A stretch of DNA of 35,656 nt from Malassezia furfur (lineage: Eukaryota). A program made the translations under genes and the position numbers. The notes under the pieces were generated by a model, which saw nothing but the letters and a program-made list of their open reading frames with translations, was not told where the DNA came from and did no database searches. Location of the stretch: the NCBI GenBank assembly GCA_052055015.1, contig JBQJIT010000072.1; one strand, given 5' to 3'. Below, in pieces: positions 15,197 through 30,026 of this stretch; within the stretch, counting starts at the first letter, position 1, and each line of letters opens with the position of its first letter.

Positions 15197-18032
15197 CTAC
15201 GGAGGCGCCGGTGCTGGCGTCGGCGATACGGGCGTCGCAACGCGGCGCACCGGCAAGGTATCATCCAGGATCGGAGGCGGGGGCACGTCCGGCACAACGA
15301 GGCGCCCAGCCTTCCACTTGGCACCACATGCATTGCACAGCTGCGACGGGCCCTTGGGGCCGCGACGCCACATGGGCGTCTTCGTTTTCCCACAGGCGCC
15401 GCAGCTCTTGAGACTGCCGTCGGGGTTGTGCGTTGCGACATGGCGCTTGCGCTTCGGCCGCGGCTCTCCGTCCAGGATCTCGGCCGCATAGTTCCGCGGC
15501 ACATGGTGGTCTACACGCGGCGCGCGTGGCTCGCGCGAGTCAGAGAGCGTCGCAACTTTGCGCTTTGGCTGCGGTCGTGTCGTGCTTGACTGAATCCGCA
15601 TCGCATAGCGATCAGTAATGTGTTCCTCGAGACTCGGCGGGATGTCCGCCAGAGCGACACTGCGAGGCAGCGTTTTGGGCGGGGGTATGGCGTCGAACCG
15701 TGCCGTGAACGACTGCTGCAGCTTGTCAAACAGTTCCTTGTCTGAATCATTCGCAAACATCCGCTCACGGTTCGGCTCCGAGGTGACGCACCCAGGCACA
15801 CGCCCGAGGCAGTCCCACAGCCGCTCGTCGATGCCCAAATCGGCGCGCAAAAACCACGTCGTGGGGTACAGCTCGTGCCCGCGCTCTGGTTTCGGTGGAG
15901 GCGCTTCTTTTTTGGGACGCGCGCGTTTGTTGCGGGCGTTGCGCTTGGCATCTGTGGTAGATTCAGGCTCCGTTTTAGGTGCGTCGGAAGACTCGGGTGC
16001 CGGTGCAGATGGCACTGGCCCAGCCTCGGGCGTGTCACTCTTGGGCGGCGGCGTCGGGGCTTTGGGCCACATCGACGCATCCAGCAACATGCCGTGGTCC
16101 ACGTGCTCGGCATCCTTGCGTCCGCTGTCTCCTGCCGCTTTGGAGCCGATGGCCGGGAGGAAGAAGCTGAGCAACACGCTGTGCCCACGCCGCGCACCAG
16201 TCATCCGCCGACGCTCGACGGCCGTATGCCATAGCGGAAGCACAAAGTTGATGCTGGGGTTCTCGGGGAACTCGACTAGCACCACGGGCGGTCCCTGCTC
16301 CTCAGGTTTGGGTGGCGGCGGCACCATCAAGGACGCAATGATGGCATTGAGTTGGGGAAGCGCCGACTCGGGCAGCTGGTTGGAACGCGCGAGCTGAAGC
16401 AGATTTTGCAGATGCTTGTCGTGTTCTGCACGTTGCTGCAAACGCGAGAGGAAACCAGCATCCAGAGGACGCGGCGCAGCACGAGGCGTTGCAGGGGAAG
16501 CGCTGGACATGCCAGGCCCCGGCGCTCCGCTGGGGGTAGTCTGTGGAGGCGGCGGTCGAACCGACGCGGACGTCGACGGCCCCGTTCCGGCTGGCGTCGA
16601 GCCCTGTGGAGGGGCATCGGTCTTGGGAGGCGCGCCACTTGTGGCGGGAGTCGCATTGTCTGTCGCCATTGGGCTGGTAGGTGGTTTCGCCGCCGGCGAG
16701 GGCGCGCTTCCTGCCGCCGAAGATGTTTCGGACCGGCCCTCATTTGCGGGAGCTTCGGACCGGGCCGCTGCCGCAGGCGCCCCTCCCGTACTTCCCGGGG
16801 CCGTCTGGGCCGGCCGTGGCGCATCTTGCTGCGGGACGCCACTGGGCCTTGCTTGCATGGGTGTGGATGGGGGACGGGGCGTATACGGTGTTCCTCCCCC
16901 CGGCGGCGGGGCTGGTCGGACATACCCATTCGGTGATCGTATGTAGCCTGCCGCACCAGGCGGAGGACGGACGCTGGCGGGATACTGCACGATTCCATGT
17001 GGTGTAGACGCCGTGGGCGGAGGGCGCGGTTTGGGGTACGTCGGCGGCAGACTCGGACGCACTTCCCAGAAGCGCACACCATAATACACCATAGGTCCAA
17101 CACGTACATCGGCGCGGCCCAGCGGCATGAGCGTGTGGGGTTTGTGTGGGTCGATATTCCGAATAAGCGCCCTAGGCACCACATCGAAATACTCCACGCC
17201 GGAGCGCTGGCGATGGCTAAAAGGGGGCAAGACTTGCAGCATATGCATCATGCGTGTTTGCCGTAATGCCTGGAGAAAGACGGAGCTGCATCAGTAGATC
17301 GACGTACCTCTCCTCTAGCGGTTCTGATGGCTGGTCAGGCGGTGCTTCGTGCGTCGGGAGCGGAAAAGGTAGGACCAGCTCTGGGATCACCTTGCGGCCC
17401 CCACCGCCCGCGGTCAGGAAGCCAGGCGGCGGTGTATCCTGGCTCGGCAGCCCAATCACACCTCCTGTCAATGCAGAGAGTGCCACGTTCTTGCTGCGGT
17501 TTGCGTGCGAAGAGGGCTTGGGCTTTCGCGGAGCCGTATTCTCTGCTGGGGGCCGAGCTGCTTGGGAGGTCGTTGGGCGCGGCGGAGCACCGTTCGTATA
17601 TGGTATAGATGGGCGCACGGTGGTTCCTGCACCCATAGAAGAAGGGTAAGCTGGTGCGCCTGCGCCCGGCACGTACGGACGCGCAACGCTCGTCACGCCA
17701 TTCGGTAGCGTGGTGTGTGGCATGGGTGGCCGCGGCGCATTCGAGGTCGTCGCGTGGGATCCCATAGGTATCGTTGTCATTGTAGGAGCCTGTGGACGCG
17801 GCATCTGTGTCGACGCAGCTGCGGGTACGCGTGGGACCGCATACACTTGGCTGGAGCCGCTCGACCCCGCCGTGGACCCTGGCGCGTCGGGCGCACTGGA
17901 CACGCCCGGCGCGCCATGATGTTGTTGCGGAGCAGATTCGGCGCCATTGCTTCCGTCTTGACCCGCCCCTGTCGCGGAGGACGGCGCAGGCCGCGCGTCT
18001 GACGGCGGCGAGGCCCCAGGCGGCACGTCCAT
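15197..18032 (-). CDS. Pro-rich nuclear protein with C-terminal GATA zinc finger (C-X2-C-X18-C-X2-C) and Swc3-like segments, ~937 aa; exons 18032-17308, 17285-15197
   Basis: CGACGKTKTPMWRRGPKGPSQLCNACG near the C-terminus. ORFs 17217..18236 and 15197..17251 are joined by the 22-nt intron GTACGTCGATCTACTGATGCAG. Confidence 0.82.
17286..17307 (-). other. Spliceosomal intron, 22 nt (GATA gene)
   Basis: GTACGTCGATCTACTGATGCAG; supplies the required +1 frame change. Confidence 0.85.
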
Positions 18033-28618: not shown

Positions 28619-30026
28619 ATGCCGAGCCAAAAGCGTGGAGACAAGATGCGGAACGCAGCGACGCAGGAGGCCCTACGTAGCCCTATGCGCTATCGTCATG
28701 GCGCAATCGTCACCAAGGGCGGCAAAATTATTGCGCGGGGTCACAACCATATCCGGACGGGTTTCAGCGGACCCCTGTCGGCACATGAGACGATTGTCTT
28801 GCCGAAGCACGCACAGAACGACGCCCAATGCTGTGCGAATTGCGCAGATGAGGAGGCACCGGCGCCGCGGCCCGGTCTCGCGAGCTCCTACTTTAGCATG
28901 CATGCCGAAATGCATGCAATTCACACAGTTCTGCGCGGCGCGCGCCCCCACCTGGCGCGATCGAGCGTGCAGCTGTGCCCGAGTCAAGATAATGATGCAC
29001 ACGATGCGCTGACAGACGCGACTTCTGCGCTTGCGCTAGACGCGAGCCGCCCGGCGGCCGCGAATCAGGACTGCTCCCGCTTGAGCGACGCATCCCACCC
29101 CGCTGGTCGCGTGAATGCGGCCAACGTGAAGACCAAGTGCGACCGTGCGCTGGTCGAGGGTGCGAAGCGGGAGCAGCAACGCATCGCTTCTACCGCGCAG
29201 AATGAGTGGTGTCTTAAACCGCGCAATAAAAAACGAGCTGAAGAAAAACCAACGCCACGCCCGCGTCCCAGCCGTTGCGGGGCGTGGGTGTGGCCAGTGG
29301 GTTGGTAACCAAGAGGCGCAGCGTCTCCGACACGAGTTTCAGCAGCGCCGCGCCGAGCACCTTGCGCGCCGGAAGCAGGAGAAGCGCGAGCGCAAGGCAC
29401 GTGGCCTTCGCGCCACGAGCTCCAGTGGGAGCTGCTCGAGCGATTCGACAGCCGACTCCGATTCGTCCAACTCGGGCGCATCGTCGTCCGGCCCGTCAAC
29501 CCCACCGCTTTCTGCACAGGACAAGGGCGGCAAGCCACTGGACATGGCAGCTGTGCCACCGGCGCTGTTGTCGAGCACGCTGGCATACCGACGCGTGCGT
29601 GCCACGTCGCGACCACGAGAGGACGCGGGCGATTCGCGGCTTCGTGGTGCTGATCTGTATGTGGTTCGCCTTTTGCAGGACGTGGAGTCCAAGGCAAAGG
29701 CCAAGGAGCACCGGCGTCGGCATCAGCGCGCAGCGCCGGCCGTTGCGCCGCGTGCCGCGACGAATACGCCCGTGAATGTGGTGCCACGGTATGCCGACAG
29801 CCGGCCGTGCTGGCGGTGTCTCGAGTGGATGCTATGGGCTGGGATCAAGCGGGTCTATTGGACGAACGCCGAGGGCGAGTGGCACGGCGGCAAGGTGTCT
29901 GCGCTGCTCTTCGGCGAGGGCGTTTCGTCAGTATCCAGCTCCCAGTCGGTGCTGGTCCCCGTGCATTTGACGCAGTACGAGCATGCGGCCGCGTTACTGG
30001 GCGCACACCATCGCGTCGCGCGATAA
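28619..30026 (+). CDS. Zinc-dependent cytidine/dCMP deaminase-fold protein encoded in two overlapping frames (28619-29308 and ~29130-30026)
   Basis: Frame A: SPMRYRHGAIVTKGGKIIARGHN...SMHAEMHAI (HAE at 28901-28909). Frame B (+1): RLRGADLYVVRL...DSRPCWRCLEWMLWAGIKRVYWT (PCxxC at 29805-29819). Confidence 0.8.

Follow-up and report, generated by a model that had tools for sequence, protein, structure and literature searches.

The stretch analyzed here (hereafter the window) comprises 35,656 nucleotides of contig JBQJIT010000072.1 from the Malassezia furfur assembly GCA_052055015.1 and contains a gene for a putative zinc-dependent deaminase, the two active-site halves of which lie in different reading frames (Table 1). 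The zero frame (frame A), which carries the H-A-E motif, runs from the ATG at 28619 to the TAA and encodes a product of 229 residues (P0001). The second frame (frame B), displaced by +1 with respect to frame A, is open from position 29130 to the stop codon at 30024–30026, encodes 297 residues (P0002) and carries the GADLYV and PCWRC motifs. The overlap of the two frames includes the sequence GAG TGG TGT CTT AAA (29204–29218) and a run of six adenines, A6 (29228–29233). A single +1 step at CTTA, of which the gene has one in-frame copy, yields a continuous product of 468 residues (P0052). The preliminary description of this DNA had reported this layout, and rereading the sequence showed that all its coordinates, including those of the A6 run, are correct. 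The shift in codon endings that it had pointed out also holds, with G or C at the end of 3 of the 13 frame-A codons that follow AAA versus 8 of the 13 frame-B codons. The observation that one deaminase is split over two frames is confirmed.

Table 1. Features of the split deaminase gene and their positions in the window
Feature	Position	Strand	Remarks
ORF1 (first open reading frame), zero frame (frame A), ATG to CUU Leu codon	28619..29215	+	Helix 1, strands 1-2, H-A-E zinc/catalytic motif at 28901-28909
Conserved block TGGTGTCTTAAACCGC	29207..29222	+	With G 29206: 29206-29221 nucleotide-identical in the window, L001, L002/L003, L006 and L007
Proposed +1 shift heptamer CUU_AAA_C	29213..29219	+	Cross-lineage conservation; only in-frame CTTA of the gene
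ORF2 (second open reading frame), +1 frame (frame B), AAC to stop	29217..30026	+	NRAIKNELKKN, basic helix (RKQEKRERKARG), strand GADLYVVRL (29646-), PCWRC (29805-29819)
Strong local hairpin	29248..29306	+	Lineage-specific
Zero-frame stop TAA	29306..29308	+	Ends the non-shifted 229-residue product; inside conserved frame-B codons GGT AAC (Gly-Asn)

Sequence and structure comparisons argue that the two halves belong together. Against the Pfam family PF00383 (dCMP_cyt_deam_1), for which the gathering cut-off is 25, the N half alone scores 17.8, under the cut-off, and the joined product P0052 scores 25.4, above it; the orthologues P0006 and P0007 score 37.1 and 29.1. In a phmmer comparison, the N half and the PCxxC half of P0052 align to residues 19–53 and 83–118, respectively, of the dCMP deaminase 4p9c, with a whole-sequence E-value of 0.026. 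An AlphaFold2 model of the annotated orthologue P0007, built from a 31-sequence alignment, has a mean predicted local distance difference test score (pLDDT) of 64, with values of 82–94 in the core and below 50 in the inserts. Residues 1–377 of this model superimpose on 3dmo with a VIA-align Z-score of 12.9 (113 residues aligned, root-mean-square deviation 2.5), and TadA and the dCMP, guanine and cytidine deaminases give Z-scores of 10–11; altogether, 23 chains have a Z-score of at least 8. The rows returned by Foldseek against the PDB were weak (best E-value 0.057) and were all deaminases. The five-strand β-sheet and its two zinc-binding helices are present in this model, which is that of the orthologue P0007 and not of the window's own protein. 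Because of the Pfam score of the joined product, the phmmer alignment and the fold match of P0007, we conclude that the two halves build one CDA-fold catalytic domain, as the preliminary description had claimed in assigning HxE and PCxxC to one polypeptide of about 468 residues. As for the substrate class, the best sequence match is a phage dCMP deaminase (E-value 0.026), and the structural Z-scores are alike for cytidine, dCMP, guanine and tRNA deaminases.

The gene product would share the H-A-E and P-C-x-x-C motifs and the five-strand core with the CDA-fold dCMP, cytidine and tRNA adenosine deaminases (PF00383; 3dmo, 4p9c, TadA). It differs from them by a largely disordered insert, about 200 residues long, that separates the HAE helix from strand 3 and includes both a conserved basic helix and the shift site; characterised members were not found. 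Note that residues 186–223 of the P0007 model (approximately 29320–29420 of the window, frame B, i.e. the RKQEKRERKARG region) form this long basic helix with a pLDDT above 90, and that several of its residues are invariant across Malassezia-like C halves within the otherwise disordered insert; judging from the model, the helix possibly plays a role in nucleic-acid binding or forms a coiled coil.

The break recurs in related proteins. Searching with the longer protein returned five annotated proteins, from Malassezia vespertilionis, M. nana, M. caprae, Malassezia sp. CBS 17886 and Violaceomyces, and the four Malassezia gene models join the halves at four different places; the N-termini of the orthologues begin with MPSQKR.DKMRNAATQEAL. 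The C half retrieved 26 proteins, mostly open reading frame (ORF) calls limited to the C half, including M. sympodialis MSYG_0455 (P0011), and the N half retrieved 22 relatives besides the window's own protein, with 46–71% identity. In 19 of these 22 N-half relatives, the sequence W-[C/G/Y]-L-K-P (C-C-F-K-P in one case) is followed by a stop 25–50 codons on, the remaining three being a diverged fragment (P0047), the M. cuniculi model P0049, which bypasses the site, and the distant Acaromyces model P0051. On the other side, six of the 17 C-half ORFs fetched reach the site, and all six read G-[V/G]-L-N. Leu-Lys in frame A thus lies over Leu-Asn in frame B, and the underlying sequence must therefore be CTT AAA Y. 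All related lineages with DNA or two-frame ORF calls show this break, and such recurrence is far beyond chance. Orthologues in a single uninterrupted ORF, which the preliminary description had named as speaking against recoding, were not met among Malassezia-like sequences, where only gene models with differing joins were found. Public models join the halves at six or more different points (P0003, P0004, P0005, P0007, P0049 and P0053), and P0011 covers the C half only. The Malassezia/Tilletia models P0003, P0004, P0005, P0007, P0011, P0049, P0053, P0024 and P0029 are mutually inconsistent, with differing invented joins, the C half only or a fusion into a 2,119-residue model, and seem to need re-annotation as one frameshifted gene.

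The DNA of relatives gives the sequence at the switch itself. One metagenome scan provided 19 loci (L001 onward), among which three Malassezia-like lineages (L001/L007, L002/L003 and L006) are 52–56% identical to the C half of the window. In all of them, frame 3 encodes the N half and frame 1 the C half, i.e. a +1 switch, and all carry an identical GTGGTGTCTTAAACCG; L004 and L005 start 3′ of the site. The Tilletia-like locus L008, whose N-terminus is that of the Tilletia proteins P0024 and P0029, reads TGG TGG CTT AAA CCC and again displays a +1 switch; in the Tilletia gene models, the frame-B reading LRGGLNP is reached by an invented join. Altogether, CTT AAA C is present in the DNA of the window, L001–L003, L006, L007 and L008. 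The preliminary description had proposed programmed +1 frameshifting near 29210–29235, with CUU_A as the first candidate site and AAA_AAA_CGA (29228–29236) as the second, and had suggested looking in relatives for a +1 break at a TGG-YGT-YTT-RAA-like motif. Such a break was found in both Malassezia-like and Tilletia-like DNA, and the comparison supports the first site: the +1 break and CTT AAA C are kept in these lineages despite saturated synonymous sites, and the second site lacks conservation. We also observed that the zero-frame TAA lies within GGTAA (29304–29309 in the window) at the same place in L001, L002 and L006, and that most lineages stop 31–33 codons after the site.

Between the window, L001, L002 and L006, the synonymous p-distance is 0.63–0.79, i.e. 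saturated, and the pairwise ratio of nonsynonymous to synonymous p-distances (pN/pS) is 0.21–0.40 for the N half in frame A and 0.35–0.45 for the C half in frame B. Purifying selection acts on both halves. Because synonymous sites are saturated and pN/pS is low, the gene is not decaying, and the 16 nucleotides that remain invariant around the heptamer stand out.

Substitution patterns bear on the position of the switch. In the upstream segment −75..−33 (KCDRALVEGAKREQQR), the ratio of nonsynonymous to synonymous substitution rates (dN/dS) is 0.08 in frame A, and frame B is without synonymous change. In the downstream segment +7..+46, it is 0.29 in frame B versus 0.88 in frame A; more specifically, the first four codons after AAC display only frame-B third-position changes (CGC/CGA, GCA/GCT/GCG, ATA/ATC and AAA/AAG), all of them synonymous in frame B. 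Between these segments, at −33..−9, the change of ACG to ACT in the close pair L001/L007 is synonymous in frame A and replaces Arg by Leu in frame B; likewise, AAT/AAC between the window and P0008 is synonymous in frame A and replaces Met by Thr in frame B. The Violaceomyces protein reads FASTGQAEW where the window reads IASTAQNEW, so that six of the nine positions match in frame A, and the E-W-x-[L/F/I]-[K/E] motif recurs in the N frame of the distant relatives P0157, P0105 and the L014 group. Finally, two distant groups described below have an N frame with a clear coding signal as far as a slippery site that is in phase with it. Because of these close pairs, the Violaceomyces match, the recurrence of the motif and the N-frame coding of the distant groups, we place the switch at the heptamer, which would be the exact slip point.

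The explanation that best fits these data, and one that we consider probable, is Ty1-like programmed +1 ribosomal frameshifting at CUU_AAA_C, which would give rise to the 468-residue protein. Ribosomes would start at 28619 in frame A and reach, about 200 codons into the message, a state in which CUU (29213–29215) occupies the P site and AAA (Lys) the A site. There, a fraction of them would slip one base forward, the peptidyl-tRNA-Leu re-pairing with UUA, so that AAC (Asn) would be read instead of AAA and translation would continue in frame B (AAC-CGC-GCA...) to the stop codon at 30024–30026. Ribosomes that do not slip would stop at 29306 and release a 229-residue fragment with half a catalytic domain. 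The slip would be driven by slow decoding of AAA, or of GAA in some distant relatives. The predicted tryptic junction peptide is IASTAQNEWCLNR if tRNA-Leu slips on CUU, and IASTAQNEWCLKPR for the non-shifted product. We infer the ribosomal nature of the switch, the P-site slippage on the heptamer and the driving role of slow AAA decoding from sequence comparisons. The likely effect would be that little of the full enzyme is made, perhaps in an amount that depends on how much tRNA-Lys(UUU) is available or on how it is modified. In yeast, AAA and GAA are read by mcm5s2U34 tRNAs and, by analogy, this mode of reading may matter for the Malassezia gene. In a crude set of window ORFs (9,535 codons), no other in-frame YTTAAA was found versus about two expected, a small expectation drawn from the window alone. 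The window contains no tRNA gene, and hence no nearby quadruplet-reading tRNA was found within it.

Several observations weigh against this explanation or against the position assigned to the slip. (i) The eight variable codons at −33..−9 have a lower dN/dS in frame B (0.44) than in frame A (1.31), and the switch could lie up to about 33 nucleotides upstream of CUU; similarly, a Q to K change in the close pair P0038/P0040 favours the other frame. (ii) AAA is only moderately rare, with 88 AAA versus 271 AAG in the crude ORF set. (iii) The tRNA-Leu set of budding yeast differs from the one expected in basidiomycetes. (iv) RNAalifold, run on five sequences, revealed no conserved RNA structure adjoining the site: the covariation term was 0.08, and the only stem there was an invariant one of 5 bp around the site. 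(v) A synthetic CUU-AAA-C in wild-type Saccharomyces cerevisiae shifts +1 at only 0.19% (Tukenmez et al. 2015, PMC4627075).

Two further features near the site deserve mention. The hairpin at 29248–29306 has a stem of about 21 bp that overlaps the end of frame A and is more stable than expected (z-scores of −3.26 and −2.97 in two runs, matched by 0 and 1 of 200 shuffles), and the matching region has z-scores of 0.66 in L001, −0.02 in L002, 0.45 in L006 and 0.19 in L008, where the hairpin is absent; it is probably not part of the conserved signal. The sequence UUAAAC (29214–29219) equals the core of the determinant of selective removal, the motif that the YTH protein Mmi1 recognises in fission yeast; this match is probably a coincidence because the motif cannot explain a change of frame.

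Other ways of joining the frames were weighed against ribosomal slippage at the heptamer. If polymerase slippage or insertion/deletion editing changed the frame in the RNA, it could have used the A6 run, and a one-base change in the RNA is indistinguishable from ribosomal slippage by sequence alone. That run is not conserved, however (ATC AAG AAC in L006, ATA AAG AAC in L002), the conserved block contains no homopolymer longer than three, and insertion/deletion editing of nuclear mRNAs is not known in fungi; we therefore regard this route as highly unlikely. The variation of the run, which coexists with persistence of the break, also disposes of the one-nucleotide error in A6 that the preliminary description had put forward as an alternative.

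Similarly improbable, in our view, is that the halves are separate polypeptides assembling into an active deaminase, the C half being produced by internal initiation or by reinitiation after the frame-A stop. A frame-B ATG does exist at 29202 in the window and another one in the matching region of L002, and the annotated M. sympodialis protein MSYG_0455 (P0011) comprises the C half. Yet there is no conserved start: the 29202 ATG is replaced by ACG (Thr) in P0008, which is 95% identical, and is not ATG in L001 or L006, while the next frame-B ATG (29544), not conserved either, lies 3′ of the conserved and selected segment 29217–29400. In addition, about 580 nucleotides of translated ORF1 would lie upstream of any such start.

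A very short or non-canonical spliceosomal intron of 3n+1 nucleotides, either the 25-nucleotide GTGGGT...GCGCAG (29297–29321) already considered in the preliminary description or the 61-nucleotide GTCTTA...CCCAG (29211–29271), would also join the frames. The introns of the window are tiny (21–33 nucleotides by pattern, with GTRNGT donors), so that 25 nucleotides is not absurd; moreover, GTGGGT serves as a donor-like hexamer elsewhere in the window, and annotators of related genomes put introns here. However, L001, L002, L006 and L007 contain no 3n+1 candidate with a GTRNGT donor in the overlap, none of the 15 candidates in the window has a CTVAY branch within 14 nucleotides of the AG, and their only GTRNGT-type donors are GTGGGT at +71 and +84. 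More specifically, the 25-nucleotide intron has no counterpart in L001, L002, L006 and L007 and would delete the conserved frame-B sequence W-[AV]-G-N-Q, and the 61-nucleotide one would remove NRAIKNELKKNQRHAR, the substitutions of which follow a frame-B synonymous pattern. The published models, for their part, disagree on the location of the join. Splicing thus retains only a very slight chance. Independently of this gene, pattern matching alone revealed 21–24-nucleotide GTRNGT...CTVAY...AG matches beside ORF boundaries at 1911, 12008, 13249 and 27319 on the + strand and at 17307, 15137, 14925, 10471 and 26752 on the − strand; judging from these patterns, the spliceosomal introns of this genome appear to be among the shortest known.

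Finally, a decaying pseudogene or an assembly error, to which a lone frame break in one record would normally point, has a negligible probability given that the same break is found in at least 20 independent ORF calls and four further DNA lineages and that both halves combine a pN/pS of 0.21–0.45 at saturated pS with the lack of any other stop or shift. An error shared between the assemblies is very unlikely, as they are independent.

Two groups of more distant fungal loci provide less secure leads, based on sequence, to +1 switching. In the first (L009, L010, L011 and L013), the region between the halves has one YTTRAAN, CCA TTT AAA GGG, which is in phase with the N frame. dN/dS switches at TTT AAA G, favouring the N frame up to it (0.22 vs 2.18) and then the +1 frame (0.37 vs 0.72). 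The taxonomy of this group, obtained via the ESM Atlas, is a weak lead to 'Basidiomycota'. In these loci (L009:555–610; L010:1440, L011:610 and L013:778), TTT AAA G is followed by 48 invariant nucleotides that contain a perfect 7-bp hairpin with a 9-nucleotide loop, starting 7 nucleotides past the heptamer; this hairpin could be a 3′ stimulator.

The second group comprises five loci, with an intron after HAEMHAIFNAC. Its N frame is coding (dN/dS 0.17) up to CGT TTT AAA GCG, located within a 40-nucleotide invariant block, and a second in-phase look-alike, TGG CGT YTT GAA CCG, is found 183–204 nucleotides farther, with both frames open between the two sites (L014:2547/2730; L015:397/601; L016:2532/2724; L017:417/618; L018:2553/2748). 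All indels are multiples of three, and the C domain is in the +1 frame (dN/dS 0.17). Between the sites, the two frames have similar dN/dS values (0.75 and 0.83), which do not separate them; the paired sites may represent two successive chances to shift or delimit a dual-coding linker.

On a wider scale, a profile search of 1.84 billion cluster representatives returned 1,146 relatives at E ≤ 0.001, with 300 cluster representatives at E ≤ 1e-10. The best 150 of the 1,146 relatives were examined, including 19 proteins already fetched. The other 131 consist of 48 proteins with both motifs (mostly Pezizomycotina-like gene models), 73 with the C half only, five with the N half only and five with neither. 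Of 38 C-half ORFs that extend far enough to cover the region, 18 carry the pattern x-L-[N/K]..H-[L/I]-[N/D], and N-frame readings such as SSEWRFEGG (P0157) and AEWEIKPR (P0105) were found; these readings are at the protein level only, where frameshifted and intron-split genes are indistinguishable. Tentatively, and as a possibility that we hold to be well short of likely, the frameshift could be ancient across higher fungi, with sites of the form Y-UU-RAA-S (CUU AAA C, UUU AAA G, YUU GAA C) shared by Malassezia, Tilletia and lineages that resemble agaricomycetes or Pezizomycotina. The gene could then act as a sensor found in nature, yielding an intact deaminase of nucleic acids or nucleotides only under reduced wobble-uridine modification or a reduced supply of tRNA-Lys/Glu.

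Chromosomal genes with a conserved +1 frameshift are a great rarity: S. cerevisiae has four accepted cases, the last of which was reported only in 2025 (PMC12719033). The Ty1 site CUU-AGG-C also serves S. cerevisiae ABP140/TRM140 and YFS1 (YPL034W) (PMC12719033). The Malassezia gene resembles these systems in the expected re-pairing of the P-site CUU with UUA, in the CUU-RNN-C layout of the heptamer, in an ORF2 that lies in the +1 frame without a start of its own, in the conservation of the heptamer across species and in a synonymous pattern that appears to switch frame at the site (PMC12719033). It differs from them in its A-site codon, which is AAA (Lys) instead of the rare AGG (Arg), and in its host, a basidiomycete, the tRNA-Leu and tRNA-Arg sets of which need not share budding-yeast peculiarities. 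In addition, the shift would split a catalytic domain in its middle, at roughly codon 200, versus codon 4–5 in YFS1, and the gene families are unrelated (PMC12719033).

The reporter of Tukenmez et al. has an identical heptamer, on which the peptidyl-tRNA-Leu slips when tRNA-Lys(mcm5s2UUU) enters slowly (PMC4627075). In this system, shifting reaches 1.9% in elp3, i.e. it rises tenfold without the mcm5 wobble modification, and extra tRNA-Lys(UUU) lowers it; the authors credit slippage of tRNA-Leu while the A site awaits hypomodified tRNA-Lys (PMC4627075). That reporter is, however, an artificial Ty1-derived construct, whereas the Malassezia site is natural and conserved, and in the literature searched the heptamer CUU-AAA-C is known only from this synthetic yeast construct.

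Antizyme (OAZ1) offers another parallel, as a conserved chromosomal +1 shift in fungi, including basidiomycetes, that gives the sole functional product and in which both frames conserve the nucleotides immediately preceding the site (PMC5009743). There, the A site holds a stop codon and the shift senses polyamines, whereas the Malassezia gene has the sense codon AAA and no stop within 30 codons (PMC5009743). Frameshifting of the antizyme type was rejected on these grounds, the A-site codon being AAA and the first frame-A stop lying 31 codons 3′ of it. The UCC_UUU_CGU site of influenza A PA-X shares the +1 slip, a P-site codon of the UUU type and an A-site codon that would be read slowly, and resembles the UUU_AAA_G and UUU_GAA_C variants of the distant fungal groups; it differs in belonging to a viral gene, in giving a minor accessory product and in its A-site codon (PMC3498833).

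In the literature searched, antizyme was the only +1 frameshift gene found in fungi outside budding yeasts, and no description of a frameshifted fungal deaminase or of a natural CUU-AAA-C site was found, subscription-only papers and supplements lying outside the search. Term searches of the accessible part of the Atkins 2016 review and of Iyer 2011 returned no mention of a frameshift in a Malassezia deaminase.

As regards annotation, every public model of this gene met here is truncated or patched with an invented intron. The gene would add to the known systems a basidiomycete, possibly Dikarya-wide, case of +1 frameshifting with a natural CUU-AAA-C site, and would allow wobble-uridine modification to be tested as a tuner of natural frameshifting. 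Should the sensor reading be true, the synthetic CUU-AAA-C reporter would have its first counterpart in nature, with recoding in the middle of a catalytic domain. The deaminase family to which it belongs is uncharacterised, and its expression seems deliberately throttled, which would suit an enzyme able to mutate or edit nucleic acids.

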